Positions 26,940 through 42,509 of a stretch of DNA of 64,000 bases are shown here, one piece after another. A model generated the notes under the pieces. The model saw only the letters and a list, made by a program, of their open reading frames with translations. It was not told the DNA's origin and ran no database searches. Made by a program: the position numbers and the translations under genes. Origin of the DNA: a plasmid; sequence record OW849299.1, one strand, 5' to 3'. Within the stretch, counting starts at the first letter, position 1. Each line of letters starts with the position of its first letter.

Positions 26940-26948
26940 CCTACAGCA

Positions 26949-26976
26949 GCGGCAGAAACTCTGCCGCCTGATTTTT
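26949..26976 (+). terminator. Terminator after nuc.
   Basis: gcggcag-aaact-ctgccgc followed by ctgattttt. Confidence 0.5.
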
Positions 26977-26979
26977 AAC

Positions 26980-27056
26980 TTGATTTATATGGCTCATTCG
27001 TCGTATTATCAAGGCTCATTTTTCGGTAGCGCCCCGACTGGCGAAGGAGTAAAACC
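26980..27056 (+). promoter_or_regulatory. CUP-like promoter/5'UTR cassette, copy A (degenerate). It drives the 168-aa ORF and the tandem-HTH regulator.
   Basis: TTGATTtatATGGCTCATTcGtCGTATtAT ... cggtagcgccccgactggcgaaggagt + 6 nt + ATG. Confidence 0.55.
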
Positions 27057-27563: not shown

Positions 27564-28035
27564 GATGGTTAGCGTCGTTCCGCAGCCGGAAACAGTGAAG
27601 ACGCTCCGGGAAAAAATGGGCATGACTGAAACCGCATTAGGGGCTGTCATGGGGTACGAACTGCGCGCCTGGCAGCGTAAGGAAGCTATCAGCGACGATC
27701 TCAGCCAGTACAACAAGACCAGTCTTCGCCCAGGCGAATATAACATGCTGATGCTGATCGCCGGCGTGCATCCTGATTACCGCCTGAACAGGGCATTCAG
27801 TCCTGATGATATGGTCAAAGATCCCGCCACGGCCGAAGACGTTCGCCGCCTGCGTCTGGCGCTGGGGCTGAAGCACGCTGAAATTGCAGCGCTGTTTGGC
27901 TATAAACCGGCGTCATGGCAGACCAAAGAAAAGGCTGCTCAGCGCGGCGTAAAGCTCAAGACCGGGGAATTCAATTTCCTGTTACTTCTGGCCGGTGAGC
28001 ATCCGTCACTGCAGCTGGTTGAGAAGGCGAAATAA
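27556..28035 (+). CDS. Tandem-HTH DNA-binding regulator (KorC-like). Candidate repressor of the repeated leading-region promoters.
   Basis: Two homologous ~70-aa halves, LREKMGMTETALGAVMGYELRAWQRKE and LRLALGLKHAEIAALFGYKPASWQTKE, each followed by ...LLIAG(V/E)HP. Confidence 0.6.
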   Translation: MIKMVSVVPQPETVKTLREKMGMTETALGAVMGYELRAWQRKEAISDDLSQYNKTSLRPGEYNMLMLIAGVHPDYRLNRAFSPDDMVKDPATAEDVRRLRLALGLKHAEIAALFGYKPASWQTKEKAAQRGVKLKTGEFNFLLLLAGEHPSLQLVEKAK

Positions 28036-28063
28036 GGCCCGCGGCGACCAGAGAGGACCCTTT

Positions 28064-28474
28064 ATGATCACCACACGCCGAATGTTAATGCTGTATGCCT
28101 GCCTTGTGCCCGTAGCCCTGACAGGGTGTGATCTGGCTGATTATTTCCCGAATGTGCCACAGCCCGTGCCCGTGATTTCGCCCGGCTATCAGGTTGATAT
28201 CGATGGCCACCCGGTCCGAATATCAGGATTTGATGACTGTCCGCGGGAAAAAGATGAAGCCCGGCACGCAGCTGCACAAGATGAGAAAGGCTGCATTGTG
28301 CTGTCTGCAGAGCGTTCCGAGGTGAAGGTCAGACTGTATCAGCCAGCCGGCGCCGTCACCGAAACCTGGCGGATCATCCGGGAAAAAGACGCTCGCCAGA
28401 ACGATATTATTCGCCTGCAGCGCCCGAACGGTGCGCTTGTGATGCAAAATTTACAGGGGAAAGAGTCTCCTTAA
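28064..28474 (+). CDS. Lipoprotein (136 aa).
   Basis: Lipobox VALTGC. Its 3' end (NLQGKESP*) is part of a motif repeated upstream of several CUP-like units. Confidence 0.5.
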   Translation: MITTRRMLMLYACLVPVALTGCDLADYFPNVPQPVPVISPGYQVDIDGHPVRISGFDDCPREKDEARHAAAQDEKGCIVLSAERSEVKVRLYQPAGAVTETWRIIREKDARQNDIIRLQRPNGALVMQNLQGKESP

Positions 28475-28497
28475 ACCAGGGAAATAACAAAATTAAC

Positions 28498-28591
28498 TTG
28501 ATTTATATGGCTCATTAGACGTATAATAATTACATCGAAAGGCAATCCGGTCTTTCGACGGTAGCGCCCCGACCGGCGCAGGAGTCACCTT
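28498..28591 (+). promoter_or_regulatory. CUP-like promoter/5'UTR cassette, copy B (complete).
   Basis: -35 TTGATT at 28498, invariant ATGGCTCATTAGACG spacer, -10 TATAAT at 28522, UTR hairpin tcgaaaggcaatccggtctttcga, cggtagcgccccgaccggcgcaggagt, ATG at 28592. Confidence 0.7.
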
Positions 28592-28855
28592 ATGACTGCT
28601 CTCAATTCTCAGCAACAGGCTGATGTTGCCCGCTATATCCGGGAACATGGCAATAAAACCGTTATTTCCCCTGAATGGTCACTTATTTATTTCTCGCTGT
28701 GTCAGTGTGAATTACATCAATCGCATGAAGCCATTATTTTTCATAATGGCCGACCTGCAGGGCTATTTATTCTGAATGAAACAGGCGAGCTCACCGAATT
28801 ATATCTGCTGGGGTCGCTTTCTGACATTCTCACCGCCGCTGCGGTCAACAAATAG
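28592..28855 (+). CDS. Hypothetical leading-region protein (87 aa).
   Basis: First ORF after cassette B. Confidence 0.5.
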   Translation: MTALNSQQQADVARYIREHGNKTVISPEWSLIYFSLCQCELHQSHEAIIFHNGRPAGLFILNETGELTELYLLGSLSDILTAAAVNK

Positions 28856-28876
28856 CTTTCAGGGAGTAAATACACT

Positions 28877-29239
28877 ATGACCATGCAATCAGAACTTGTT
28901 TTTACTGATCCTATGCTCAACGTCGTTATTGCTGAAGTTAAGCGTTTTAATTGCCCGCTTCTTTTTGTCAAAGATCATGGCGTGTATGTGATGGCGGCGA
29001 AAGGTGAGAAAAACAGTAATGGGATGCACAATGTCTGTTACGCCAATGGTTTTAATCCGGATACAACGGATTTTGACGAGCTCTGGGACCGGATGCGTGA
29101 TGCCTGTGGCGGAGATGATTTTTGCGAATCCCTGGAGCTCGATCCGAGGTCGATTGAACTTCTCAGCCGTACCAAACCCTGCCTGAAAATTATGCTTTCA
29201 GAGACGGAACTGGAAGTTATTGCAGGGGGACAGAAATAG
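28877..29239 (+). CDS. Hypothetical leading-region protein (120 aa).
   Basis: Second gene of the operon (RBS agggag). Terminator at 29246-29272: aaagcccg-ttaaat-cgggcttttttat. Confidence 0.5.
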   Translation: MTMQSELVFTDPMLNVVIAEVKRFNCPLLFVKDHGVYVMAAKGEKNSNGMHNVCYANGFNPDTTDFDELWDRMRDACGGDDFCESLELDPRSIELLSRTKPCLKIMLSETELEVIAGGQK

Positions 29240-29360
29240 ACCATAAAAGCCCGTTAAATCGGGCTTTTTTATATTTCACTGTATTTACATCTAGGACAAA
29301 ATGTCCTATTATATATTTGTGGCCGGGCATGGTGCTCAGGTCCCCTAACGAGGGAAATAT

Positions 29361-29810
29361 ATGAAATTTTCAGCAGAAGAACTCAACATTATCCGCCAGG
29401 CGGACGCCATTATTGCCGGTAAAATTACCACAACGGATTTTATCACCGGCGCCGACGCCGCGCGTTCCTTACTGCGGTTTCGTCTTGCTGCAGAACCACG
29501 CGAATCATTCTGCGCGTTCTTTCTTAACTGCCACAACGGCGTGATTGCGTTTGAAGAACTGTTTAAGGGAACTATCAGCAGCGTCACCGTTCATCCGCGT
29601 ATCGTCCTGCAACGCGCCCTGCATCATAATGCCGCCGCCGTGGTACTGGCGCATAACCATCCTTCCGCTAACACTACACCCAGCCAGGCTGACAAGCTGA
29701 TCACCGAGCGTCTGGCGCAGGTGCTGGGGATGGTTGATGTCAAAGTCCTCGATCACCTGATTGTGGGCGGCAGCGATATTTACTCTTTTGCTGAACATGG
29801 TCTGATTTGA
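29361..29810 (+). CDS. radC: RadC-like JAB/MPN domain protein (YeeS family), common in plasmid leading regions.
   Basis: HNHPSANTTPSQADKLITERL matches the RadC HNHPSG...PS.AD motif. Confidence 0.85.
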   Translation: MKFSAEELNIIRQADAIIAGKITTTDFITGADAARSLLRFRLAAEPRESFCAFFLNCHNGVIAFEELFKGTISSVTVHPRIVLQRALHHNAAAVVLAHNHPSANTTPSQADKLITERLAQVLGMVDVKVLDHLIVGGSDIYSFAEHGLI

Positions 29811-29854
29811 TAACCGCGGCCGCACAGTGGTGCGGCCGGCTCTGGAGGCTTGCT

Positions 29855-30121
29855 ATGGGCAATAAATATACCGTGCCGCTTAACGTGGGCGCGATCCGCG
29901 AAAGCTGTTTCCGTCCCGCTGATAAATGGACCCCGCCGACGGGGGATGAACTCCGCTATCTGCTGGAAAATGTGCTCAACCTGAGTCAGGAGGGACTGGC
30001 GCGACATGTCGGCGTGAACGGCAGAACGGTGCGCCGCTGGGTGAACGGAGAAAGTGACATCGCGTATTCCGTCTGGTGCGTCCTTTGCATCGATGCCGGC
30101 TTACCGCCGATCTGGAAATAG
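29855..30121 (+). CDS. HTH-containing small regulator (89 aa) co-transcribed with radC.
   Basis: LSQEGLARHVGVNGRTVRRWVNGE is a helix-turn-helix. GGAGG Shine-Dalgarno upstream of ATG 29855. Confidence 0.5.
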   Translation: MGNKYTVPLNVGAIRESCFRPADKWTPPTGDELRYLLENVLNLSQEGLARHVGVNGRTVRRWVNGESDIAYSVWCVLCIDAGLPPIWK

Positions 30122-30184
30122 CAGCGCAAAACACCGACGCGCAAACGTGCTTCCTGAACGTATCGGATATACGAAGGAAATATT

Positions 30185-30467
30185 ATGAATACTGATAACT
30201 ATTTTTTCAGAGTCCCGGCCACACGCGGAATACAGGGCGGCATAGAACAATACATGCTGACGGTTCCTATGGTCGTGTTACGTCGTATTCTTGCAATGGA
30301 CAATGATGGCGATGTTATGGATCGCAGCCAGCGAGAAGCGAACAAAACGCGGGCCAAAAAAATACGGAATTATGTTGCCGGCGCAACATCAAAACGAGCT
30401 CCCTATATTTTGCCGTCAATTACCGGAAATATTGATAGTCATGTTGAATTCCTTCCCAGCGAACTCT
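30185..30467 (+). pseudogene. 5' part of a DGQHR-domain (DndB-like) protein gene, interrupted by IS1.
   Basis: The N-terminal 94 aa run into the IS1 end. The downstream fragment carries the LFDGQHRALG motif. Confidence 0.6.
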
Positions 30468-31235
30468 GGTAATGACTCCAACTTATTGATAGTGTTTTAT
30501 GTTCAGATAATGCCCGATGACTTTGTCATGCAGCTCCACCGATTTTGAGAACGACAGCGACTTCCGTCCCAGCCGTGCCAGGTGCTGCCTCAGATTCAGG
30601 TTATGCCGCTCAATTCGCTGCGTATATCGCTTGCTGATTACGTGCAGCTTTCCCTTCAGGCGGGATTCATACAGCGGCCAGCCATCCGTCATCCATATCA
30701 CCACGTCAAAGGGTGACAGCAGGCTCATAAGACGCCCCAGCGTCGCCATAGTGCGTTCACCGAATACGTGCGCAACAACCGTCTTCCGGAGCCTGTCATA
30801 CGCGTAAAACAGCCAGCGCTGGCGCGATTTAGCCCCGACGTATCCCCACTGTTCGTCCATTTCCGCGCAGACGATGACGTCACTGCCCGGCTGTATGCGC
30901 GAGGTTACCGACTGCGGCCTGAGTTTTTTAAATGGCGGAAAATCGTGTTGAGGCCAACGCCCATAATGCGGGCGGTTGCCCGGCATCCAACGCCATTCAT
31001 GGCCATATCAATGATTTTCTGGTGCGTACCGGGTTGAGAAGCGGTGTAAGTGAACTGCAGTTGCCATGTTTTACGGCAGTGAGAGCAGAGATAGCGCTGA
31101 TGTCCGGCGGTGCTTTTGCCGTTACGCACCACCCCGTCAGTAGCTGAACAGGAGGGACAGCTGATAGAAACAGAAGCCACTGGAGCACCTCAAAAACACC
31201 ATCATACACTAAATCAGTAAGTTGGCAGCATCACC
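30468..31235 (-). mobile_element. IS1 (768 bp), second copy, in the same orientation as the first. No flanking direct repeat.
   Basis: Ends identical to the first copy. Flanks gcgaactct and gggattctt do not match. insA at 30905-31180 and insB at 30483-30986. Confidence 0.95.
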
Positions 31236-32225
31236 GGGATTCTTAAAATTCCGATGGACGCTGATTTAAAATTATTCGATGGCCAGCACCGTGCGCTGGG
31301 TATTTTTGAATTTGTACGCGATTATTCCAATACGGAAGATACGATCAGCTTGTTGCTTACCGTTGGCCTGCCACTTGAGTTACGCCAGCAGTTTTTCGCT
31401 GATATTAATAACAACGCGAGCAAACCGGCAGCGGCGATCAGTATGGCATATAACAACAATGATCCGGTCAACCAGCTGGCAATGCATCTGGCCCGAACCG
31501 TCACCGGGCTGGCGGGCACAGTGGATTTTGAACACAACGTGGTCCCGGCGAAAAGCTCACGGCTGATCAGCTTTAAAGCACTGAACGATGCGACGAAAAA
31601 AATGCTCAACCTGCGGGCCAACAGCATTCCCTCGACGCAACAGCGTGATATGGCAGAAAAGCTCTGGACTGCCTGGGCACAGGCGATGCGCTGGAATGAT
31701 ATTGCCCAGGATGATATCGCTGCGGAGTACCGTCAGGAGGCGCTGGGACTGCATGGCATCATGATAAATGCGATCGGTATGGCAACGGCCAGGATGTTAC
31801 GGCACAGAACACCTGAAAGCATCGAGAACCTTCTGGCCTGTGCGGAAAACGGAGACAACGGTTTTCATTATCGGGAGTCGTTTGTACCTGAGTGCTGGGA
31901 AGGGAAGTGTGTTGATCCGGAGACTGGCACCATTAAAACTGACCGGCGGGCGCTTGAAGCAACGGCTGAAGCGCTGCAAAAGCTGATAGACCCGTTCGCA
32001 GATGCGCTGTGGTTGCGTGCTTATCTGCCAGTTGAAGAGGCGAGTGATACGGCATTACTGAAATATGCTGCTGACATCGAGAGTTATAAGCAGCGCACAG
32101 CCGTGCCGATGATCAATATCGTGGAGAAGCTGAAGGCGCTGGGTGACGGCGAACCGCAGTTCAGAGCGTCGGTGCTGGCTTCCCGTGAGGGGCTAAGCCG
32201 CTATCTGGCCGGGGCTGAAGGCTGA
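31236..32225 (+). pseudogene. 3' part of the DGQHR-domain (DndB-like) protein gene.
   Basis: Reading frame GFLKIPMDADLKLFDGQHRALG... continues directly from the IS1 end. DGQHR motif and DndB-like central region. Confidence 0.6.
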
Positions 32226-32737
32226 CGCGGTGGTTGCCGCCTGCAGGGCAATACGGGCATCGAACCCGTATTGCCCTGAAACGCGCTGAGCCGCTCTCTG
32301 GGCGCGCATTTAAAAAACCTGTACCCATCATCGTTTTTATGTCTTTGACGAGTCCTGCCCCCTATTCTGGCCTTTTCTGATGTGATCCCGCCCTGGTGTC
32401 TGCAAGTTAACTTAATTTTGACGCCCGCACAGCGTGTCTTCCCTGTTCATTTCTGCTCAGTTGCCGGCGTTTTCTGGCTGGCCTGTCGTACTAAAACACC
32501 TCTGGGCCCCTTCGGCTCCTGCCCGTCGGGCAGTCGTCAGCCACACTCCGCTAGCCAGGCAAAGCCTGGCAGCTCCGCCGAACCCCCTGCGGGGTTTCGG
32601 GCTATCGCTAGTGTCTGATGCCTGAACCCCTGCACCATGCCGGCAAAGCACCTTCATCGGGCTGATGGGGATCTGAAAAGCAAAATTTACAGGGAAAGGA
32701 GTTCAGGAAAAAACAAAGAAAATTAATCAGATAACGC

Positions 32738-32832
32738 TTGATTGTTATGGCTCATTAGACGTATAATGATCACATCGAAAGGCAATAAGGCTTTTCGCGG
32801 TAGCGCCCCGACTGGCGCAGGAGTAACAAATT
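32738..32832 (+). promoter_or_regulatory. CUP-like promoter/5'UTR cassette, copy C (complete).
   Basis: TTGATTgttATGGCTCATTAGACGTATAAT + hairpin + cggtagcgccccgactggcgcaggagt + ATG at 32833. Confidence 0.7.
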
Positions 32833-33012
32833 ATGAGTAAAGCACTGACCCCCTCCCAGCTTAAAGCTGAACTGGAAACGCAGAAAGATGCGCTGCTGAA
32901 GGCGTGCCTGTATGCCCTCAACGAAATCCCTAACCGTCGTTTAAGTGGCCCGTATGCGTCCACGTATGCGCTGGCCGAGCAGGTCAGTAAACTGCTTCAG
33001 CGCTGCAAATAA
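32833..33012 (+). CDS. Small protein (59 aa), not in the ORF track.
   Basis: MSKALTPSQLKAELETQKDALLKACLYALNEIPNRRLSGPYASTYALAEQVSKLLQRCK. ATG 7 nt after the cassette aggagt. Confidence 0.45.
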   Translation: MSKALTPSQLKAELETQKDALLKACLYALNEIPNRRLSGPYASTYALAEQVSKLLQRCK

Positions 33013-33084
33013 TCATTGATGGGCTGGCATTGCCAGCCCTGTTCACCCCTTACGGTAGCGCCCCGCATGGCGCAGGAGTCTGAA
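33013..33084 (+). promoter_or_regulatory. Internal cassette, copy D: a perfect hairpin plus the UTR/RBS module, with no promoter.
   Basis: gggctggca-t-tgccagccc then cggtagcgccccgcatggcgcaggagt then ATG at 33085. Confidence 0.6.
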
Positions 33085-33945
33085 ATGTCATCTGAAAAAA
33101 CTCTCCCGTCGGTCGATCTGATGTCCTGCCAGCATGGCGGTGAAGTGATCCCGTCCATAGCTATTGAGCGCATTATCTCGTTGCGGAATGAAGGTATTCG
33201 CGTCTATCTCGACGGCATAGACAAGCTGCGAAAAGCGCGCGATCTGATGCAGCAGGCCGGAGGCTGTCAGTACCTGTATGACTACGACAAAGCCGTAGAG
33301 AGCGCGATCAAATGGAGCGACACCAGACCAGACCAGGCCGAAACGGCTATTTCCCGCGTTATCGACGGAAAAATCTGGGATCGGCTGATGTCGGAAACCG
33401 GCATGTATACGCTGATGAGCAACAAACAACGTCAGGAATGGGATCGGCAGGTGGCAGGCGAGGAAATGCCGCCGATAACGCTGGAGAACGTTATGAGTAC
33501 GTTCCGGCACCTGAACGCAAGCAAGGCCGATACTTTCACGCAAGGGCTGATTGATATCTTTAAATCCCTGTCGTGGGATTATAAAACCAATAACCCCTGC
33601 ATGTTTGGCAAGCGTATCATCATCGCGCCGTTGCTCGATGTCTGGCGCAGTAGCTGGGTGCGCTTCAGCTCAGACGGGCACACCAAAATTGACGATCTGG
33701 CGCGGCCGTTCTACGTGCTGGACGGGCGTAACGTGCCTGATTACCGCGTTTCTGACGGTGCCAAACTGGATGCCTTTTTCAGTGAAAACCAGTTCAACGG
33801 TAAGGTGTTCGAGTGTGATTACTTCAGCGTGCGATATTACAAAAAGGGCAGCGCGCACATTACGTTTAAACGCCCGGAGCTGGTTGAGAAGATCAATAAT
33901 CTGGTTGCCAGTCACTATCCCGGAATGTTACCCCCTCGCGTGTAA
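33085..33945 (+). CDS. Hypothetical leading-region protein (286 aa).
   Basis: Start set by the RBS cassette. The ORF-track version has an N-terminal extension in the same frame. Confidence 0.55.
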   Translation: MSSEKTLPSVDLMSCQHGGEVIPSIAIERIISLRNEGIRVYLDGIDKLRKARDLMQQAGGCQYLYDYDKAVESAIKWSDTRPDQAETAISRVIDGKIWDRLMSETGMYTLMSNKQRQEWDRQVAGEEMPPITLENVMSTFRHLNASKADTFTQGLIDIFKSLSWDYKTNNPCMFGKRIIIAPLLDVWRSSWVRFSSDGHTKIDDLARPFYVLDGRNVPDYRVSDGAKLDAFFSENQFNGKVFECDYFSVRYYKKGSAHITFKRPELVEKINNLVASHYPGMLPPRV

Positions 33946-34030
33946 TGCAGACGGCAGGCCGCATTTGCGGCCTGAAATATAAACAGGGAAAGGAAGTATT
34001 CCCCGGCCTGAAAAAATCATGCCGGGCATG

Positions 34031-34134
34031 TATTTATTGCTTGATTAATATGGCTCATTAGACGTATAATAATCACATCGAAAGGCAATGAGGCTTTTCG
34101 CGGTAGCGCCCCGACTGGCGCAGGAGTAATAAAT
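34031..34134 (+). promoter_or_regulatory. CUP-like promoter/5'UTR cassette, copy E (complete).
   Basis: TTGATTaatATGGCTCATTAGACGTATAAT + tcgaaaggcaatgaggcttttcg + cggtagcgccccgactggcgcaggagt + ATG at 34135. Confidence 0.7.
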
Positions 34135-34473
34135 ATGGCTATTCAATCCCTTCAGTTCCGTAACGGCTCCGTTTCTCTTGGTGATGTTTTTGTTTCCAGC
34201 TGGGGTTATGAGCAGACAAATACCTGTTTTTATCAGGTGATCGCCCTGCGCGGTAAGAAAACCGCCGTACTGCGCCGCATCGCTGCGCAGCAGGTGAAAG
34301 CAGACAGTGCAATGTCTGGCGAGTTAAAGCCGGTATTGAACGACTTTAAAGGCGAACCCGTGACCCGTCGCATCTGTGAAAACCATGAGCATCCGTCTGT
34401 CAGCATTGACGAGTACGAACAGGCTTATAAGACCGATCCTAACGAAAGCCATTTTTACAGCACCTGGGGCTGA
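34135..34473 (+). CDS. Hypothetical leading-region protein (112 aa).
   Basis: ATG positioned by the cassette. Confidence 0.5.
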   Translation: MAIQSLQFRNGSVSLGDVFVSSWGYEQTNTCFYQVIALRGKKTAVLRRIAAQQVKADSAMSGELKPVLNDFKGEPVTRRICENHEHPSVSIDEYEQAYKTDPNESHFYSTWG

Positions 34474-34570
34474 CCGCCTGCTACGCCCCGCAAGGGGCGT
34501 ATAGTCGAAGACTTATTCAACCAAAACGTGAATACTATGCGAAATAACAAGGCGCTCAGGACGCAGATAC

Positions 34571-34801
34571 ATGGCGGAAACAGTTTATCAGGCGCGGAGG
34601 CGTTTTTACCTTCTCCGTTTTCGGCGCAGTCGTAACCCGGACACACTGGAAAAAATGTACGAATCCATGCGGGATCGTGGACAGGTGCCGCCGGAGGACA
34701 CCGAGGCTTTTGAGGCTGCCGCCGACCATCGCCGCGCAGAGCTGGCATCGGGACGCATCTGGGATAAGATCCCGCCGCATGTCTGGCAGTATGTAAAATA
34801 A
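34571..34801 (+). CDS. Hha/YmoA-family small nucleoid-associated modulator (76 aa), the leading-region copy.
   Basis: FEAAADHRRAELASGRIWDKIPPHVWQYVK aligns with Hha [30 protein letters not shown]. Terminator agcgcccctacacggggcgttttttt at 34806-34830. Confidence 0.7.
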   Translation: MAETVYQARRRFYLLRFRRSRNPDTLEKMYESMRDRGQVPPEDTEAFEAAADHRRAELASGRIWDKIPPHVWQYVK

Positions 34802-34833
34802 TCACAGCGCCCCTACACGGGGCGTTTTTTTGC

Positions 34834-34913
34834 TTGCATATATGGCTCATTAGACGTATAATGTTTTTACTGATTCAAATCAGTACCTTCCTAAACAGCC
34901 TTACAGGTGCATT
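34834..34913 (+). promoter_or_regulatory. CUP-like promoter, copy F: promoter core only, with a different UTR.
   Basis: TTGCATatATGGCTCATTAGACGTATAAT. UTR carries the ctgattcaaatcag hairpin. Confidence 0.6.
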
Positions 34914-35027
34914 ATGACCTCTTCTGAAATCCTCCATAACCTCCCTCAGATTATCACGGCCGTGGCCGCCCTCATTACAGCCATTACCGGGCTGATTAAA
35001 GTCATGAAGGATAAAGGTAAGGACTGA
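34914..35027 (+). CDS. 37-aa hydrophobic peptide with a basic C-terminus (Ldr/type-I-toxin-like). Candidate small membrane toxin or regulator.
   Basis: MTSSEILHNLPQIITAVAALITAITGLIKVMKDKGKD. Resembles the LdrD core LAAPILAGIITAAIVSWW. Confidence 0.35.
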   Translation: MTSSEILHNLPQIITAVAALITAITGLIKVMKDKGKD

Positions 35028-35098
35028 ACCGCCGCAGGGGGCGACAGCCCCCTGCATCCCTAACCGGCAGCGCCCCGACTGGCGCAGGAGTAAAAAAA
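35028..35098 (+). promoter_or_regulatory. Internal cassette, copy G: a perfect hairpin plus the UTR/RBS module.
   Basis: gcagggggc-gaca-gccccctgc then cggcagcgccccgactggcgcaggagt then GTG at 35099. Confidence 0.6.
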
Positions 35099-35335
35099 GT
35101 GACAACGCTGCATATTCGAGAAATTCCCACTGATGGAGCGCCGCCTATCTGTGCAGGCCGCTCAATCTCAGATGATGACCTTTGCGCCTCATGCCAGCAT
35201 CTCGACTATCGCCCTGGGCACCTCAGCGCCTGCCTGCTGTCAGGTTGCGGGCGTGACGACTGGCCTTCAGAACTGGATGCAAACGGCTACAGCGTTGCCT
35301 GTAGCAGCTATGAGCGTGAAAAATCGCTTGATTAA
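35099..35335 (+). CDS. Cys-rich small protein (78 aa, GTG start), possibly zinc-binding.
   Basis: Motifs CAGRS...CASCQH...CLLSGC. Its last five codons (KSLD*) are supplied by the -35 region of cassette H. Confidence 0.45.
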   Translation: MTTLHIREIPTDGAPPICAGRSISDDDLCASCQHLDYRPGHLSACLLSGCGRDDWPSELDANGYSVACSSYEREKSLD

Positions 35336-35419
35336 TATGGCTCATTAGACGTATAATTATCACATCGAAAGGCATCCGGTCTTTCGCGGCAGCGCCCCGA
35401 CTGGCGCAGGAGTTTTACA
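35328..35419 (+). promoter_or_regulatory. CUP-like promoter/5'UTR cassette, copy H (complete).
   Basis: TTGATTaatATGGCTCATTAGACGTATAAT + tcgaaaggcatccggtctttcg + cggcagcgccccgactggcgcaggagt + ATG at 35420. Confidence 0.7.
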
Positions 35420-35830
35420 ATGCACGGTAACGTAAATGAAATTTGCGCAAGGCTTCTCGATAGTTTTGATCCACAGCAGCGGATCAGCCTGCTGATCTGG
35501 ACTGCTGAAGATGTCCATGACTGCACCAGTGATATGAACCTCACTGACGATGAGGCCGAAGCCGTTCTGGCAGAAATCGCGGAATGCAGTTCACACAGCC
35601 GTTATGGCGTCGGAAAAGATACCGTCTGGAGCCTGGCAAAGCAGGTGCGCGAAGATGCCGCCCGCGATCGAAAAATAGAGGTCAATGCCGAGGCGCTGCA
35701 AAAAGTCGTGGCGCTGGCGGCGCAGTTTATCCGGCTGGAAGAAATCCAGTCTGGTGAAGGAGCTGCACGCCGACTTTATCCGCAGGAGTCTGAGGCGCTG
35801 GAGTGCATCACGAAGGTGATTAACGGCTAA
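35420..35830 (+). CDS. Hypothetical acidic leading-region protein (136 aa).
   Basis: ATG positioned by the cassette. Confidence 0.5.
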   Translation: MHGNVNEICARLLDSFDPQQRISLLIWTAEDVHDCTSDMNLTDDEAEAVLAEIAECSSHSRYGVGKDTVWSLAKQVREDAARDRKIEVNAEALQKVVALAAQFIRLEEIQSGEGAARRLYPQESEALECITKVING

Positions 35831-35891
35831 TTCACGCAGTAACGCAGCGAACTTTCACGGTAGCGCCCCGACTGGCGCAGGAGGAAAAAAC
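35831..35891 (+). promoter_or_regulatory. Internal UTR/RBS cassette, copy I.
   Basis: cacggtagcgccccgactggcgcaggaggaaaaaac then ATG at 35892. Confidence 0.6.
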
Positions 35892-36197
35892 ATGTCCCAG
35901 AATGAAGCCTATTACGACACGCTGGCCCTGATTGAAAAGGGGCAATGGTGTTTCGGCAGTATGGACGAAGAAAACGAAGAGCGGGCAATCAAGGCCGCTA
36001 AGGCGCTGGCGCTGTTTGCGCGCCTGAATGAGCAGGACTGCGACGGACACCCGGTTTCCGAAATCATCGTTGATTTTATCGCTAACCTGATGCACCTGGG
36101 GGAAGCGATAAATTTTCGTGTGCTCGATGAAGAAAGCGCGGTGATCCCGTTGGTCAGGATCGCCGCCGTACACTTTAACGCTGAAACAAAGTCATAG
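35892..36197 (+). CDS. Hypothetical acidic leading-region protein (101 aa).
   Basis: ATG positioned by the cassette. Terminator-like hairpin cccgcctg-aaaatatt-caggcaggcggg at 36264-36300. Confidence 0.5.
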   Translation: MSQNEAYYDTLALIEKGQWCFGSMDEENEERAIKAAKALALFARLNEQDCDGHPVSEIIVDFIANLMHLGEAINFRVLDEESAVIPLVRIAAVHFNAETKS

Positions 36198-36302
36198 TAA
36201 TCATGTGAATCAGAAGGGGGCAGGCGTGATCCTGCCCCCAAAAATGGACAGGGGAAAGAGTTCTCCCGCCTGAAAATATTCAGGCAGGCGGGAATTTTTT
36301 GC

Positions 36303-36397
36303 TTGATTAATATGGCTCATTAGACGTATAATAATCACATCGAAAGGCAATCCGGTCTTTCGACGGTAGCGCCCCGACTGGCGCAGGAGTACAGAAA
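36303..36397 (+). promoter_or_regulatory. CUP-like promoter/5'UTR cassette, copy J (complete).
   Basis: TTGATTaatATGGCTCATTAGACGTATAAT + tcgaaaggcaatccggtctttcga + cggtagcgccccgactggcgcaggagt + ATG at 36398. Confidence 0.7.
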
Positions 36398-36838
36398 ATG
36401 TCTACTGAACTGAATCAACCCGCCATCACTGCACGCATTATCCCCAATAACCGCCGCATGGCCTTTCTGCCACGTCTGTTCGGCGCCTGGTATCTCACAG
36501 GTGAGGCCGGTGTCTACAACCTCGCACGCTCTCTCTGCGTCGATTATCAAGGCGGTTCCTGGGAGTTCGTCGAACTGTCTTGCGGTAGCGGCTTCATGTA
36601 CCCACTGAGCGCAGAGCGCTTCACGGTATCGGTTAGCGGTAACTGGTTCGAAGGGGAACTGTCCGCAGAAGCTACCGGTATCGTGCTGACCCTGTTCACC
36701 CTGAACCACATGATCTGGCACGCACATGATGAAGGCTATCAGCACATCTGCGACATGCTGATCACCCAGCAGGAAAAGCTCAAATTATATGCCGACCAGC
36801 ACGCCGAAGCCGGTTTGATTTACCGCGCGATTGACTGA
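36398..36838 (+). CDS. klcA: KlcA/ArdB-family anti-restriction protein.
   Basis: LPRLFGAWYLTGEAGVYNLARSLCVDYQGGSWEFVELSCGSGFMYP...GELSAEATGIVLTLFTL...AGLIYRAID aligns along its full length with IncP KlcA. Confidence 0.85.
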   Translation: MSTELNQPAITARIIPNNRRMAFLPRLFGAWYLTGEAGVYNLARSLCVDYQGGSWEFVELSCGSGFMYPLSAERFTVSVSGNWFEGELSAEATGIVLTLFTLNHMIWHAHDEGYQHICDMLITQQEKLKLYADQHAEAGLIYRAID

Positions 36839-36881
36839 AACGGCGGCCCCCGTGAGGGGGCCAATACTGACAGGGGGAAAA

Positions 36882-37166
36882 ATGTTAACACTAACTGATA
36901 TTCGCGCCAGCAATACGGTGCTGGTTACGGAATTTGGCGGCGTGCGTGCTGTGCATTTCTGTCTGCATGAAAAATTAAGCGGTAGCGACAACGATCTGTG
37001 GTTTCCGCTTGCCAATGGAGCCGACCTGTTCGAGGCGCTGGAAAGCATTATGTGCATCAATTTTGCCGCTGCTAACGTTGTCTCGCTGGAGTTCCTGCGG
37101 CAGAACGGGAAGTGCAAAGACTACCGGATCACCTACAACAAGGCCAAATTCAAGCCATTAGGTTAG
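36882..37166 (+). CDS. Hypothetical leading-region protein (94 aa).
   Basis: ATG at 36882 after the hairpin ggcccccgtgagggggcc. Confidence 0.45.
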   Translation: MLTLTDIRASNTVLVTEFGGVRAVHFCLHEKLSGSDNDLWFPLANGADLFEALESIMCINFAAANVVSLEFLRQNGKCKDYRITYNKAKFKPLG

Positions 37167-37230
37167 ATGTCTGGCATCATTTGATGTTCATATTTGAACA
37201 AAATTAAATAAAAAAAATACGTCTGATGAG

Positions 37231-37320
37231 TTGATAAAATGGCTCATTAGACGTATAATTATTACATCGAAAGGCAGTTGAGTCTTTCGCGGTAGCGCCC
37301 CGACTGGCGAAGGAGTTGAA
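37231..37320 (+). promoter_or_regulatory. CUP-like promoter/5'UTR cassette, copy K (complete, 1 nt shorter in the spacer).
   Basis: TTGATAaaATGGCTCATTAGACGTATAAT + tcgaaaggcagttgagtctttcg + cggtagcgccccgactggcgaaggagt + ATG at 37321. Confidence 0.7.
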
Positions 37321-37542
37321 ATGAAAGAAGCAGACCAAAAAAAAGTGAATGCCGTAATGGCAATTGCTGATTATCTCGGTGTGAAAAATCAAATCGAGGT
37401 GATCGAATACTCAGCCGAATCAGTGCAGGTTGAGTGGCGAAATCCTAAAACAAAACAGCTTATTCATCGTGATTACACTTTTGCAAATTCCTTTGTAAAA
37501 GACTTTGAAAAAGCCCTGAAATCGAACGTGAAGTTTTACTGA
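37321..37542 (+). CDS. Hypothetical small protein (73 aa).
   Basis: ATG positioned by the cassette. Confidence 0.5.
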   Translation: MKEADQKKVNAVMAIADYLGVKNQIEVIEYSAESVQVEWRNPKTKQLIHRDYTFANSFVKDFEKALKSNVKFY

Positions 37543-37613
37543 AAAAGAGGGGGAGAAATCCCCCTTAATCCTCCCATTTTTTACTGATAAACATCAAATA
37601 TATGAGGTGTATT

Positions 37614-38048
37614 ATGTGGAAACGTGGCGAAAACAAAGTGATTCTGATGGGGCGTGCTGGCAAAGATGCAGAAGTGCGTTACACCCCAAACAGAACGGCC
37701 ATTGCGAGCCTGACGCTGGCTACAGAAATCAGCTACAGCGACAACGAAGGGAAGGAGCAAAAAGAAACGGAATGGCATGATATTGTCATTTTTGGAAAGA
37801 AAGCCGAAGCAGCTGGGAAGTACTTCAAAAAGGGTATGATGCTGTATTTTGTCGGGCGCATTCGTAATAACAAATGGCAAGGGACAGACGGCAAAATGCG
37901 CAGCAATAAGGAAATTGTGATCGATAATAACGGCGAAATGCAGATGCTGCCGGGAGCTGGGCCACGTAACACCAGTGCAGAAGGCCAGGGAGGCATTGAA
38001 AATCATGATGAACCGCCGTTCCCGGATATGAATGATTACCCGCAGTGA
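37614..38048 (+). CDS. ssb: Single-stranded DNA-binding protein (plasmid SSB).
   Basis: MWKRGENKVILMGRAGKDAEVRYTPNRTAIASLTLAT...TEWHDIVIFGKKAE...DEPPF, with the acidic DxxPF tail. OB-fold pattern of SSB. Confidence 0.9.
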   Translation: MWKRGENKVILMGRAGKDAEVRYTPNRTAIASLTLATEISYSDNEGKEQKETEWHDIVIFGKKAEAAGKYFKKGMMLYFVGRIRNNKWQGTDGKMRSNKEIVIDNNGEMQMLPGAGPRNTSAEGQGGIENHDEPPFPDMNDYPQ

Positions 38049-38103
38049 GTATTTGAGTTAGAACGGCCCGCAGGACGCGGGCCGCCAATCCAGAGGGGGG
38101 AGT

Positions 38104-38415
38104 ATGAATATCAGTGAACAATATCGGGTGGCGGTCGTCAGTACCGGCCATGTAAAAAAAGAAGACGCGGAACTACTGGACAAGGTCTGTAACGATGACT
38201 TGTCCGGTCAAGGTTTGTTCTGGATCGAGAAAAATCGCTATGGGTGGATATTGCGTATTTCTGCTACTGAACAATGGCGAGTGGAATTAACCAGGGCGGG
38301 GATCAGTGCAAGTGCTTTGGATAATATAGCCGCGTTAAATGGTGCCGGGTTCGACTGGATTTGGTTTGACCGGGATGCGGAACAGGTGCCAGAACTGACC
38401 GTTTGGGAGTGGTAA
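38104..38415 (+). CDS. Hypothetical protein (103 aa) downstream of ssb.
   Basis: ORF in the same operon. Confidence 0.45.
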   Translation: MNISEQYRVAVVSTGHVKKEDAELLDKVCNDDLSGQGLFWIEKNRYGWILRISATEQWRVELTRAGISASALDNIAALNGAGFDWIWFDRDAEQVPELTVWEW

Positions 38416-38454
38416 ACCGGTTAAAAATTTGCCTCGAAAAGGGGCATTTTTTTC

Positions 38455-38547
38455 TTGCCTGCAATGGCTCATTAGACGTATAATAATCGTGAAGTTTAAA
38501 AGTGGATATTGATTAAAACGCTCTGTAAATAACGTGGAGAGAATATT
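38455..38547 (+). promoter_or_regulatory. CUP-like promoter, copy L: promoter core only, with a different UTR.
   Basis: cTTGCCtgcaATGGCTCATTAGACGTATAAT, then a distinct 60-nt leader, then ATG at 38548. Confidence 0.6.
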
Positions 38548-39084
38548 ATGGCGGCCTTATACCCTTATGAGGTTTATACCCTTATTGTGTCAGAATTAAT
38601 CGTAAGCCATTTTAATGATGTCGCTATGGTATATCCGGGAAGCGAAGAAATTAAAAAGAACTACGACAGTGAATTAAGTGCTGTACAGGTAGTTAATGGC
38701 ATCAGAGAAAAACTGATTGAAGATGGTGTTATACAGTGCGAACAGTGCCCACTGCTATCCGAGTGGGATGAGAACAAGGTTATCAACCAGCTAATTAAAG
38801 ATTACCGCCTGATTCTCAATCGTGACTATGAACTAAACCGTGTTCGTCAGCAGCTGGCCCCGGAGCTGATCGCACAGATAGAAAACTGGAAAGAGCAGAA
38901 GTATTCCGATTCTGCGAAGGAATACGAGGTGCTCTATGAAACCATCAACATCAACGGAAAGGAGGTTACAGGCAAACTAAACGTAGTTGCAGTAAGTCGC
39001 TTTGATGCTGTTTTCATCGTAGGGCAGCGTCACGCTAACGATAACTTTTTGGTTCTGGATGTGAAGGAGGTGATGAATCATTGA
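38548..39084 (+). CDS. Hypothetical protein (178 aa) next to oriT.
   Basis: ORF after cassette L. Confidence 0.5.
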   Translation: MAALYPYEVYTLIVSELIVSHFNDVAMVYPGSEEIKKNYDSELSAVQVVNGIREKLIEDGVIQCEQCPLLSEWDENKVINQLIKDYRLILNRDYELNRVRQQLAPELIAQIENWKEQKYSDSAKEYEVLYETININGKEVTGKLNVVAVSRFDAVFIVGQRHANDNFLVLDVKEVMNH

Positions 39085-39293: not shown

Positions 39294-39585
39294 ATCTGTA
39301 ACTGTCTCAGGGGCGCTGTATGCGCCCCTTTTTAATATCCTTGCCCGGACTCCTTTCCCTGTAAATTTATCGGGATCAAGGGCGGATCGTGGCCCTGAAC
39401 GTGCGCACCATTGAGCGCTGCATCGCAGCGGAACCGGAAAATTTTTTTCCGGCCAATGAGTGCCCTTGTCACCGGAACGGTGACAAGTATGCACGCACAA
39501 TTACACGAACAGGCAGCACCCATGCCCGGCCTGACAGGCCGGGAGCTATATCATAATGTGGGATGCTATATGTGAAAGGTGAAGG

Positions 39586-39951: not shown

Positions 39952-40135
39952 ATGCCCTCCCAATAATGTCAAAATCGCCATGCCGAACCGGAGAAAATCG
40001 ACCCAGGCTATTCGGGTGATTTTACATGATGCCCGGCACGATTCAATTGCTCTGCCTGCCAGGCCCTTCGCTGCTGGCTTTCAAACCTCGCCGATGGTAG
40101 AATTCAATGAGGTATTTAAGTACGGGACAAGATGT

Positions 40136-40176
40136 GTTTTTGGAGTACCGCCGACACGCGGCGGCCGTCCAAAAAC
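40136..40176. promoter_or_regulatory. oriT: Candidate oriT core: a nested inverted repeat 50 bp upstream of nikA.
   Basis: Outer arms gtttttgga/tccaaaaac at 40136-40144 and 40168-40176. Inner hairpin ccgccg-acac-gcggcgg at 40148-40164. Confidence 0.5.
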
Positions 40177-40225
40177 GTCTTGGTCAGGGCAAGCCCCGAC
40201 ACCCCCTAACGAGGTTAGCTATCTG

Positions 40226-40543
40226 ATGAGCCGTAGCGAGAGCAGAAAAACAGACGATCGAATCCAGGTGAGATGTTCCACAGAAGTGAAAGCTAAACTC
40301 ACCGAAAAGGCCCATGAAGCAGGGCTTAGTCTTAGTCAATATCTTATCAAATCTGGGCTTGGAAAGCGCATTCAATCGAAAGGCAATTACAATGCACTTG
40401 CCGCTCTTGTAAAGATAACAGCCCTTCAAAAACATCTGTTTAACGAAGGTGCCGGAGTTCATAGCAAGGAGTATTCAGAGATTCTGATCGAGGTCAAAAA
40501 GGCCGCACAGAAACTGCAACAGGAGATGGATGGTGATACCTAA
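40226..40543 (+). CDS. nikA: NikA-like ribbon-helix-helix relaxosome accessory protein.
   Basis: 106 aa ...LSLSQYLIKSGLGKRIQS...LQKHLFNEGAG..., similar to R64 NikA. The ORF-track version (from 39980) is an upstream extension. Confidence 0.8.
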   Translation: MSRSESRKTDDRIQVRCSTEVKAKLTEKAHEAGLSLSQYLIKSGLGKRIQSKGNYNALAALVKITALQKHLFNEGAGVHSKEYSEILIEVKKAAQKLQQEMDGDT

Positions 40544-42509
40544 AATCATTGAGGGCCGAAGGGACAAAAAGTCCAGCTTTGGTCAGCTGATTAAGTACAT
40601 GGCAGACAAGCCGTCTCAGGAGTTGACTGATACAGTTCAGCCTACTCCTGAGACGGCTTTGGCTGTTAAATCAGATATGTTCGAAGGGTTAAACAATTAC
40701 CTGACCCGTAAGCAGAAAGTGATCAGCACACCGGTGGATGTTGAGCCAGGTGTACAGCGTGTTGTGGTTGGTGATGTTACCTGCCAGTACAATACCTTCT
40801 CGCTCGATGGTGCAGCACAGGAAATGAATTCAGTTTCTCAGCAAAGCACACGCTGTAAAGATCCAGTTATGCACTATGTTCTCTCATGGCCTGACTATGA
40901 AAAGCCGAATGATGATCAGGTTTTCGATTCGGTGAAGTTTACACTGGCATCGATGGGCATGTCCGATCACCAGTATGTTGCTGCCATCCACCGGGATACA
41001 GATAACCTGCATGTGCATGTTGCTGTTAACCGCATCAATCCCCAGACATATAAAGCAGCCTCATCGAGCTTTACCAAAGACACTCTTCATCAGGCGTGCC
41101 GCTTACTGGAATTGAAGAATGGTTGGTCCCATTCAAACGGTGCATATGTGGTTAATGACCGTCAACAGATTGTCCGGAACCCTCACAGCAAGAAAGAGCG
41201 GGGCAACTGGCGCTCACTCGATCGCATCAACAAGATGGAGAATAAAGAGGGGGTTGAAACGCTCTATCGCTATATCGTTGGTGATGAACAGGTAGGCGGT
41301 AGTCGTCAAAACTTGATCCATGTTTCAGCTGGGCTTCGTGAAGCCAAAAGCTGGGATGATGTGCATAAGACATTTGCAGACATCGGTCTTCGTGTCGAAA
41401 AAGCACAGGGGAAAAAGGGCTACGTCATTACCCACGAACATCAAAACCAGAAGACGGCTGTTAAGGCGAGTCTGGTATTTAACAAGGCGCAATATACCCT
41501 GAAGTCGATGGAAGAGCGCTTTGGTGAATACCAGCCTTCACATATTGAACCGGCCAAAGTATCGGTATTTAAAACCGCATATACCCCTGGTGCTTATCGT
41601 CGAGATGCCAATAAACGTCTGCAGCGTAAAATTGAGCGCGCAGAAGAAAGAATGCTGCTCAAGGGTCGCTATCGCGCCTACCGAAACAATTTACCGATAT
41701 ATTCTCCGGATAAGGATCGCATCGCCGATGAATACCGGAAAATTGCCCAACATACCCGGTTGGTGAAAAATAACGTCCGGCATTCTGTTTCAGATCCTCA
41801 TACCAGAAAGCTGATGTACAACCTGGCTGAGTTCAAACGCCTGCAGGCGGTTGCCAATCTGCGTCTTAGCTTGCGTGAAGAACGCAACGGCTTCAGGGCG
41901 GCTAACCCACGGCTTTCTTACCGGGAGTGGGTCGAACAGGAAGCACTGAAGGGTGATAAGGCAGCGCTCAGCCAAATGAGGGGCTTTGCCTATTCCTCCA
42001 GGAAGAAGGAGAAGTATAAACAGCAACTGGTTGAGCAGATCGGGTTCAACCGTACCTTTAACGCCATCACCAGTCATGATCGTGATGATGTGGCCGTAAT
42101 GGCCTCAGCACGTCATGGTGTCAAGCCACGGCTTTTGAAAGACGGTACTGTTATCTTTGAGCGCGACGGTAAACCGGTAGCGGCTGATCGTGGTCATATT
42201 GTGCTGACAGAAAGTAATGGAATCGACAAAGAGAAAACGGCTGACCTTGCAATTGCATTAACGATTGCTGGTAAAGCCAAATCTGTTCGTGTTGATGGTG
42301 ACGGCGAGTTTAAGGAACTGTGCTGTAATCGTATCGTCGATGCAGCTGTGAACCACAATCACCCTGTCGCGCAGGGCATTACCTTCACAGATGCCGCTCA
42401 GCAGGCGTATGCTCAAAACGAGAAACATCGTTTGATTCGTGAGCAAAATAATAGTAAAAATGAAATGCAATTCAGAAGTGAAAGCGACGACAAATTCAAT
42501 CCGAAGTAA
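40530..42509 (+). CDS. nikB: MOBP-family relaxase NikB.
   Basis: MVIPKIIEGRRDKKSSFGQLIKYMADK aligns with the R64 NikB start MNAIIPKKRRDGKSSFEDLVKY. HxH motif HVHVAVNRINP. Confidence 0.9.
   Translation: MVIPKIIEGRRDKKSSFGQLIKYMADKPSQELTDTVQPTPETALAVKSDMFEGLNNYLTRKQKVISTPVDVEPGVQRVVVGDVTCQYNTFSLDGAAQEMNSVSQQSTRCKDPVMHYVLSWPDYEKPNDDQVFDSVKFTLASMGMSDHQYVAAIHRDTDNLHVHVAVNRINPQTYKAASSSFTKDTLHQACRLLELKNGWSHSNGAYVVNDRQQIVRNPHSKKERGNWRSLDRINKMENKEGVETLYRYIVGDEQVGGSRQNLIHVSAGLREAKSWDDVHKTFADIGLRVEKAQGKKGYVITHEHQNQKTAVKASLVFNKAQYTLKSMEERFGEYQPSHIEPAKVSVFKTAYTPGAYRRDANKRLQRKIERAEERMLLKGRYRAYRNNLPIYSPDKDRIADEYRKIAQHTRLVKNNVRHSVSDPHTRKLMYNLAEFKRLQAVANLRLSLREERNGFRAANPRLSYREWVEQEALKGDKAALSQMRGFAYSSRKKEKYKQQLVEQIGFNRTFNAITSHDRDDVAVMASARHGVKPRLLKDGTVIFERDGKPVAADRGHIVLTESNGIDKEKTADLAIALTIAGKAKSVRVDGDGEFKELCCNRIVDAAVNHNHPVAQGITFTDAAQQAYAQNEKHRLIREQNNSKNEMQFRSESDDKFNPK

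Follow-up and report, generated by a model that had tools for sequence, protein, structure and literature searches.

A repeated promoter and leader module in the leading region of an IncL pOXA-48-type plasmid: natural intercistronic junctions in a probable CUP-like regulon

In a stretch of 64,000 nucleotides from the plasmid record OW849299.1 (the window), a short untranslated module ending in a Shine-Dalgarno (SD) sequence recurs inside operons without a promoter, in two places directly behind a perfect palindrome. The junctions between positions 33,013 and 35,098 raise the question of whether hairpin and module form an engineered unit through which all cistrons are switched together, as had first been proposed from the letters of the DNA, or whether they have a natural explanation. 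Engineering is contradicted by the distribution of the sequence: the window is a natural IncL (pOXA-48-type) plasmid, 100% identical to OW970026.1 and to clinical pOXA-48 plasmids and typed as IncL/M, MOBP and MPF_I, and the leader module is present in 819 PLSDB records and in environmental Erwinia and Rouxiella plasmids. The nic sequence of the IncL/M origin of transfer (oriT) is ACATCTTG/T (PMC8125031), and in the window nic (ACATCTTGT) lies at 40127-40135 on the − strand. The − strand is thus the one transferred, starting there, and it is the template of all + strand leading-region genes; the leading region, which reaches the recipient ahead of all other plasmid DNA, extends from 39 kb down to 27 kb.

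The junctions are probably natural intercistronic joints in a CUP-like "zygotic induction" regulon of the IncL leading region, a reading that, together with the mechanism proposed for it below, we favor with moderate confidence. CUPs are the ArdK-binding promoter repeats of the IncN plasmids pKM101 and R46, as described in PMC6289460 and PMC5371602, which cite Delver and Belogurov (1997). The genes of the pOXA-48 regulon serve establishment and anti-restriction: klcA, ssb, a ccgAI homolog, and several DUF genes. The KlcA/ArdB-family gene occupies 36398-36838, and the 59-residue product of the gene at 32833-33012 is a CcgAI homolog (58% identity in the comparison with R46).

The module consists of a 13-mer core, CGGYAGCGCCCCG, a GCGCC/GGCGC stem-loop (stem-loop 2, SL2), and then AGGAG. 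With up to three mismatches allowed, GCGCCCCGACTGGCGCAGGAG was found 10 times, always on the + strand, and 0 times in 100 shuffles, a recurrence far beyond chance, as had been claimed; no antisense or trans copy of the module occurs on the − strand in the window. All ten copies lie 5-9 nt upstream of the start codons of establishment genes and are rigidly coupled to AGGAG. That three of them recur inside operons without a promoter was also borne out, since no promoter-like site precedes the matches at 33058, 35070, and 35863. Two of these three follow perfect palindromes, the second of which begins one base later than originally placed, and the third follows none. The elements at the three junctions are as follows.

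33021 to 33039, + strand: hairpin after the ccgAI-like gene, GGGCTGGCA-T-TGCCAGCCC as DNA and GGGCUGGC-AUU-GCCAGCCC as RNA, −15.5 kcal/mol, no U-tract.
33053 to 33078, + strand: promoter-less module, with the 13-mer CGGTAGCGCCCCG at 33053-33065, SL2 (GCGCC-CCGCAU-GGCGC) at 33058-33073, and SD AGGAG at 33074-33078, preceding the DUF4942 gene (ATG at 33085).
35034 to 35055, + strand: hairpin after the open reading frame (ORF) of a 37-residue peptide, GCAGGGGGC-GACA-GCCCCCTGC as DNA, with the RNA 3′ arm GCCCCCUGC and a GNRA loop, −20.9 kcal/mol, no U-tract.
35065 to 35090, + strand: promoter-less module, with CGGCAGCGCCCCG, SL2, and AGGAG, before a 78-residue gene (GTG at 35099).
35858 to 35883, + strand: promoter-less module with no hairpin before it, preceding a 101-residue gene (ATG at 35892); upstream, only a remnant of a stem-loop 3′ arm (aactttca) remains.

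Hairpins are not peculiar to the module junctions. Between 26.9 and 38.5 kb there are 12 gene ends, and at every one a perfect GC-rich hairpin follows the stop codon by 5-18 nt (−8.5 to −20.9 kcal/mol). T-runs follow four of the six unit-end hairpins (26949, 29245, 34808, and 38430, with none at 33955 or 36216) and none of the six intra-operon hairpins; the tails of those at 33021 and 35034 read tgttcacccc and atccctaacc, neither was listed by a terminator scan, and the missing U-tracts argue against termination there. Of the five tetraloops, four read as GNRA on the + strand (GCAA, GACA, GUGA, and GAAA), which points to a role in RNA. The comparison set comprised a diverged Klebsiella plasmid (L002), plasmids of Pluralibacter, Erwinia aeris (L025 and L028), and Rouxiella (L003), and metagenome contigs. 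The gene ends that carry hairpins in the window carry them in L002 and E. aeris as well, although the loops differ and some stem changes compensate one another. The 33021 hairpin is retained in L002, L028, and L003 with its top pairs and loop altered, and the 35034 stem is retained in Erwinia and metagenome relatives with GAAA or GGAA loops. In the Rouxiella plasmid, however, the hairpin after the ccgAI-like gene has no module behind it, and in IncN R46 the ccgAI gene end has a hairpin of unrelated stem sequence; the hairpin thus belongs to the upstream gene. The idea of a single junction unit therefore gives way to two independent elements that happen to abut, and from their structure the intra-operon hairpins look like RNA 3′ stabilizers.

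A role for the hairpins as marks of RNA processing, another suggestion of the original prediction, bears on the same evidence. Cleavage between hairpin and module would leave the upstream mRNA with a hairpin-protected 3′ end and the downstream mRNA with an SL2-protected 5′ end, a scheme that suits stable GNRA-capped hairpins lacking U-tracts 5-18 nt past stop codons, the single-stranded spacer of 9-13 nt between hairpin and 13-mer, and the possibility that SL2 could replace, at a processed 5′ end, the promoter-proximal stem-loop missing there. Yet the spacers, UGUUCACCCCUUA and AUCCCUAAC, show no marked AU-richness, a usual trait of RNase E sites, the stems of 8-9 bp are too short for RNase III, and the third promoter-less copy lacks a hairpin altogether. 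Processing is accordingly considered unlikely.

The promoters, rather than the junctions, offer the simplest switch. A promoter/operator block, TGGCTCATTAGACGTATAAT, occurs nine times in the window (0.01 expected); the nine promoters are near-identical and of sigma-70 type (TTGATT-18-TATAAT), with one operator-like spacer, TGGCTCATTAGACG, common to all, which by its sequence looks like a repressor operator. By repeat search, the full cassette of ∼96 nt is present in six to seven copies; in addition there are nine promoter cores and ten leader cores, all of them between 26.9 and 38.5 kb on the + strand. Promoter-proximal leaders additionally begin with a stem-loop (stem-loop 1, SL1). Mapping of the RefSeq annotation onto the window gave the following transcription units.

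26980 to 27053, + strand: variant cassette P26980, with the operator TGGCTCATTCGTCG, −10 box TATTAT, no SL1, and the 13-mer at 27024, ahead of orf19, orf20 (Xre-like, the candidate for a repressor that also controls itself), and orf21.
28498 to 28588, + strand: full cassette P28498, 13-mer at 28559, ahead of hyp87 and a DUF3085 gene.
32738 to 32827, + strand: full cassette P32738, with TTGATT-18-TATAAT, SL1 at 32776-32797, the 13-mer at 32798-32810, SL2, and SD; its unit holds the ccgAI-like gene, the hairpin at 33021, the module at 33053, and the DUF4942 gene.
34041 to 34130, + strand: full cassette P34041, SL1 at 34079-34100 and 13-mer at 34101-34113, ahead of hyp112, a hairpin, the Hha gene, and a terminator.
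34833 to 34862, + strand: promoter P34833 without a module, ahead of the 37-residue peptide, the hairpin at 35034, the module at 35065, and hyp78.
35328 to 35416, + strand: full cassette P35328, 13-mer at 35387 with the CGGCAG variant, ahead of a DUF1380 gene, the module at 35858, and hyp101.
36303 to 36393, + strand: full cassette P36303, 13-mer at 36364, ahead of klcA (anti-restriction), a hairpin, and hyp94.
37231 to 37319, + strand: full cassette P37231, 13-mer at 37290, ahead of hyp73, a hairpin, ssb, a hairpin, a DUF5983 gene, and a terminator.
38455 to 38484, + strand: promoter P38455 without a module, ahead of a 178-residue gene (hyp178) and then oriT.

A further 20-nt motif, AAAATTNACAGGGRAAAGAG, occurs 12 times in the window (0.07 expected), 11 times on the + strand (at 1774, 6498, 7737, 16410, 22321, 28446, 32682, 33976, 36241, 41398, and 59536) and once on the − strand, at 39350-39369, adjoining oriT. 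Four copies lie 45-58 nt upstream of −35 boxes of the regulon, and the motif, which is also conserved in the Erwinia relative, might bind a protein or act as a strand-specific signal. The 37-residue hydrophobic peptide (MTSSEILHNLPQIITAVAALITAITGLIKVMKDKGKD, 34914-35027) is unannotated and stands behind a regulon promoter with its own leader. Its ORF is kept in Erwinia, Rouxiella-type, and metagenome relatives, and it may encode a small membrane protein or toxin.

The module had been described as forming two conserved stem-loops, which holds for the promoter-proximal copies and fails for the three promoter-less ones, which lack SL1, as does the P26980 cassette. The first of the two, given as tcgaaag...ctttcga, is a real covarying stem-loop, although its exact form is an 8-bp stem, CGAAAGGC/GCUUUUCG or CGAAAGGC/GGUCUUUCG, with G-U pairs. 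SL1 starts 1-3 nt past the predicted transcription start. Five of its eight pairs show double changes, a covariation score reached by 0 of 500 shuffles, and 94% of its cells are paired, compared with 29-47% when the partner is slid as a control. Its variants include CGAAAGGC/GCUUUUCG, CGGAAG/CUUCCG, CCAGAAGC/GCUUCUGG, CCAAAGGC/GCCUUUGG, and CGAAACG/CGUUUCG, with further ones in the relatives L056 and L073. Judged by this covariation, SL1 is a real selected structure. On the transferred strand the G-U pairs of SL1 and SL2 would turn into C-A mismatches, which assigns the structures to the + strand or to RNA. The restriction of SL1 to promoter-proximal copies, together with the separate 5′ hairpin (ACUGAU-UCAA-AUCAGU) in the leader of the module-less P34833, leads us to read SL1 as a putative 5′-end stabilizer tied to the promoter and not to the SD module.

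The 13-mer behaves differently: the core CGGYAGCGCCCCG is conserved as sequence and remains unchanged in relatives whose operator, SL1, and SL2 loop have diverged (Rouxiella, L056, and L073). Conservation figures from the strict-pattern scans of genomes and metagenomes are partly circular, as the patterns fix most positions; when copies were anchored non-circularly, by SL2 and SD or by the promoter, only rare singletons were altered at core positions 3, 4, 7, and 8. Near-invariance across diverged plasmids implies a common sequence-specific trans-acting reader. To this extent the proposal of one regulator common to all cistrons survives, whereas the simplest switch is the operator shared by the nine promoters. 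SL2 (GCGCC-CCGNNN-GGCGC) overlaps the core; the 3′ half of its loop is variable, single changes keep G-U pairing, and one L073 copy carries a compensatory change (G:C to A:U), a pattern consistent with a structure. RNA folding predicts SL1, a single-stranded CGGUA, SL2, and a free AGGAG. The strict-pattern scans returned only plasmid-like contigs of Enterobacterales and chance matches in GC-rich genomes and thus do not support a wider distribution; a search of Rfam at E ≤ 10 over 26.9-38.7 kb found nothing on the modules, and a literature search with the module sequences found no paper describing the element. Pairing with ribosomal RNA as a translational enhancer was rejected, because the complementarity of the 13-mer and of a 21-mer to Escherichia coli 16S rRNA was no better than that of shuffled sequences.

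If the reader acted on RNA, the 13-mer and SL2 would be the common target of a plasmid- or host-encoded RNA-binding translational regulator switching the module-bearing cistrons together. A single-stranded, sequence-conserved CGGUA next to a hairpin abutting the SD would suit such a protein, and one module before each of ten cistrons, internal ones included, suits a per-cistron function. The regulators originally suggested, of ProQ/FinO or CsrA type, find no counterpart here: in Pfam searches of 20 leading-region and neighboring proteins there was no FinO/ProQ, CsrA, Hfq, KH, S1, or CSD domain, the only families found being Xre/helix-turn-helix (HTH), Hha, DUF4942, DUF1380, and DUF5983, and a CsrA-like mode, for which two or more GGA motifs are usual, typically located in loops of hairpins, is contradicted by the single GGA of each leader, which is the SD itself, and by the GGA-free loops of SL1 and SL2. 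The lack of an antisense module copy and the nine other cistrons of the same operons that do without a module also count against the idea, which we judge quite improbable.

Action as DNA fits poorly with the pattern of conservation. The inverted repeat GCGCC-N6-GGCGC, placed every 0.25-4 kb in the first-transferred DNA, might serve as a double-stranded binding site (a roadblock or second operator) or, on the single strand as it enters, as a hairpin or a signal for priming. The conservation is asymmetric, however, with CGGYA on one side only and CCG only in the 5′ half of the loop; G-U-type substitutions keep pairing on the + strand and not on the transferred − strand; and the module is rigidly coupled to AGGAG and the start codon, so that a DNA-level function appears extremely unlikely.

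The promoter-less copies might alternatively have no function at all, being recombination scars of cassette shuffling homogenized by gene conversion. The copy at 35858 retains the remnant of an SL1 3′ arm, its junction has no module in the Erwinia relative, which indicates that modules are gained and lost at single junctions, and CUP-mediated recombination is documented in IncN2 plasmids. On the other side, the junctions at 33053 and 35065 have stayed intact, and free of a promoter, in IncL, L002, Pluralibacter, and Erwinia, although the proteins encoded around them have diverged by 15-45% (for 33053, the lack of a promoter extends to each of these relatives), and these two modules supply the only SD of their downstream genes. 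Scars are consequently a very unlikely explanation.

The reader of the core may instead act during transcription. The operon polarity suppressor element, ops, is GGCGGTAGCGTG; within leaders, RfaH recognizes CGGTAG, its positions 3-8, in the non-template strand (PMC5995543). The module core could be an ops-like site, its non-template CGGTAGCG recruiting host RfaH or an unrecognized NusG paralog as polymerase passes; the loaded polymerase would resist gene-end hairpins and silencing by Rho and H-NS, with a ribosome coupled to it, and the promoter-less copies would load or reload the factor inside operons, for example after the module-less P34833. The module's CGGTAGCG equals ops positions 3-10 on the non-template strand, and GCGGTAGCG occurs in three window copies. 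CGGTAG is present in eight of the ten copies and CGGCAG in the other two, while Erwinia copies reach 10 of 12 identities with ops (GGCGGTAGCG) and in one case 11 of 12 (GGCGGTAGCGTC). The CGGUA is not accounted for by RNA pairing, and in our own reading a consensus pause (G −10, Y −1, G +1) fits G5...C14-G15, with the 3′ end of SL1 12 nt upstream. RfaH, which ∼84% of Enterobacteriaceae possess, is an activator of the F tra operon, IncX and IncI plasmids encode paralogs of their own with ops-like sites, and the module was found, in the scans made, only in Enterobacterales plasmids.

Against this stands the T11-G12 pause dinucleotide common to all validated RfaH targets, which is C11-C12 in nearly all module copies (T11-C12 in one Erwinia copy), and the "invariant" T6, which is C in 18 of 64 distinct copies (∼28%) and flips between close relatives. 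RfaH operons are long with one ops each, unlike the ten sites here, which precede short operons with strong SDs; the corresponding site of the IncN CUP leader reads CGGTAT and so lacks G8; no Rfam JUMPstart match was obtained at E ≤ 10 over 26900-38700; and no NusG/KOW protein was found by Pfam among the 20 proteins scanned or in the annotation of the closely related pOXA-48 record NZ_OW969712.1, which lists no RNA-binding protein either. A literature search found no paper linking RfaH to IncL/M leading regions. The identification of the core as an ops-like site, although no other hypothesis on the reader is as specific, is thus possible but doubtful, and the fuller proposal, in which some ten degenerate ops-like sites, one in nearly every establishment operon's leader, load host RfaH or an unrecognized NusG paralog in the first minutes after entry and so shield the anti-restriction and SSB transcripts from gene-end hairpins and from silencing by Rho and H-NS, is offered tentatively, as a speculation. 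The ops-like reading would extend the CUP-like one and does not exclude it. Separately, GGCGGTAGTCGT at 41297-41308 (+) in nikB/traI, co-oriented with the long tra operon downstream, includes the 8-mer of canonical ops, GGCGGTAG; chance alone would give about two such 8-mers over the window, and the match may mean nothing.

For the repressor of the nine promoters, the Xre-like Orf20 is the best candidate, to judge from four observations. Its own operon is headed by the variant cassette P26980; an Orf20 homolog, with the conserved C-terminal part of orf19, accompanies the module in every lineage; Orf20 homologs share 88-97% identity in plasmids with the same operator and 46-48% in those with a different one; and orf20 is essential for pOXA-48 stability (PMC12365149, PMC12361523), transconjugants that receive a Δorf20 plasmid ceasing to divide. 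By tblastn, R46 ArdK, ArdR, and KorA had no significant match in the window. The orf19 product was dismissed as a hidden factor, its family being shallow, with only the C-terminal 83 residues conserved, and its deletion without phenotype. Within orf19 (27057-27563), the conserved part, ∼83 residues, starts from an internal Met (MKQVYYNEGW), preceded by 85 N-terminal codons that are Arg/Pro/Ser-rich and fast-diverging in an open reading frame; the start as annotated may reflect a leader ORF or an over-extended call.

Another promoter in the region, TTTACA-17-TATTAT at 29284-29312, contains the palindrome TAGGACAAAATGTCCTA (29292-29308) and lies upstream of genes for a JAB-domain protein and a korC-like HTH protein; the palindrome agrees with the report by Baffert et al. 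of a single KorC site. Near this promoter, a weak match to the Rfam rimP leader was discarded as a chance match to the preceding terminator.

The preferred CUP-like reading would then operate as follows. After entry and complementary-strand synthesis, the promoters would fire unrepressed until shut by a repressor of the plasmid, for which the essential Xre-like Orf20 is the likeliest candidate. SL1 would protect the 5′ end of each primary transcript, and the internal hairpins, without U-tracts and mostly GNRA-capped, would stabilize the upstream cistron at its 3′ end or weakly attenuate it, without terminating transcription. The promoter-less module would give the next cistron the same standard leader, namely 13-mer, SL2, and exposed AGGAG, and thereby strong, context-independent translation of any cassette placed behind it. 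Being conserved in sequence, the 13-mer must be read by a sequence-specific factor, for which the leading candidate would be of RfaH type, loading on the non-template strand during elongation. Several points weigh against this account. Each RNA-level role is deduced from the sequence; a "standard RBS insulator" (RBS, ribosome-binding site) does not by itself account for the sequence conservation of the 13-mer next to a freely covarying SL1; SL2 has a single compensatory change in the data; the copies at 32798 and 33053, 255 nt apart in one operon, would be redundant for a per-transcript function; and KorC is an alternative repressor, though 29292-29308 is the sole occurrence of its palindromic site.

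OXA-48 carbapenem resistance is carried chiefly by pOXA-48, and two studies from 2025 reported the regulators orf20 and korC to be essential for plasmid stability without naming their targets (PMC12365149, PMC12361523). The present map offers a testable explanation, as loss of Orf20 would derepress nine promoters with the same operator, one of them before orf19-orf20, which would be toxic. The module is also a compact natural "standard expression cassette" for anti-defense genes, and its 13-nt core a defined target for blocking plasmid establishment. Were the ops-like sites functional, the regulon of a clinically important plasmid would join the very small RfaH regulon and plasmid entry would be linked to host envelope gene expression, with RfaH possibly titrated for a time from lipopolysaccharide and capsule operons in new transconjugants.

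Elsewhere in the window, the annotated mobA/nikA ORF (176 residues, 40016-40543) contains nic, whereas MobA in relatives has 103 residues; its start is probably over-extended, which would place oriT upstream of the true start. A DGQHR-domain (DndB-like) gene is interrupted by an IS1 copy (30467-31235), its two parts lying at 30185-30508 and 31254-32225. Two IS10 RNA-OUT antisense RNAs, at 10183-10251 (+) and 12575-12643 (−), flank blaOXA-48 (Tn1999-type) and were the only matches to Rfam at gathering thresholds in the whole window.

Among known systems, the closest is the IncN CUP regulon. R46 CUPs precede ccgAI, ardA, ccgD, and ardB and are laid out as TTGACT-17-GATAAT, 7 nt, a first stem-loop UCGGGAGGC/GCCACCCGA, a second (GCCG-GUAU-CGGC), AAGGAG, and ATG. 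The two systems share co-oriented repeats of ∼100 bp at the 5′ end of short leading-region operons; the order of promoter, 5′ hairpin, second small hairpin, AGGAG, and ATG; and the control of anti-restriction and ccg genes, including a CcgAI homolog with a gene-end hairpin. R46 ccgC has a leader without a promoter, the same phenomenon as the promoter-less modules of pOXA-48. The leaders also start alike, ATCG(A/G)(A/G)AGGCAAT (CATCGAAAGGCAAT compared with CATCGGGAGGCAAT), while the remainder of the repeat differs. pOXA-48 departs from the IncN arrangement in having no ArdK/ArdR homolog and a different operator, in an SL2 and 13-mer unrelated to the GCCG-GUAU-CGGC hairpin, and in more internal promoter-less copies (three of ten). 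To our knowledge, the role of the leader hairpins has been studied in neither system.

Comparison with ops leaders (rfa, rfb, hly, kps, and F tra) finds an identity of 8-11 nt that includes the whole CGGTAG core, a position in a transcribed leader, horizontally acquired genes, and RfaH-bearing hosts, but the module has an added downstream hairpin overlapping ops positions 8-12. Stem-loops at the 5′ terminus of the ompA type are mRNA stabilizers, and intercistronic 3′ stabilizer hairpins are known as well, for example the repetitive extragenic palindromic (REP) elements in malEFG. SL1 resembles the former in lying 1-3 nt from the predicted 5′ end and in being conserved only as structure, and the gene-end hairpins inside operons resemble the latter in lacking U-tracts and in their mostly GNRA loops; unlike REP elements, the hairpins here are gene-specific sequences and not a dispersed repeat family.

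In IncW R388, which was compared by description only, the autoregulated ArdK represses several strong maintenance and establishment promoters (ardC, ssb, klcB, and others), and a transcriptional overshoot on entry has established the logic of burst followed by repression (PMC3937220). The arrangement proposed for pOXA-48, one autoregulated plasmid repressor over several strong promoters, is the same, whereas the regulator family and the operator differ and no shared leader module was reported for R388. The element is probably a variant of the CUP-type leading-region regulon on a clinically central plasmid.

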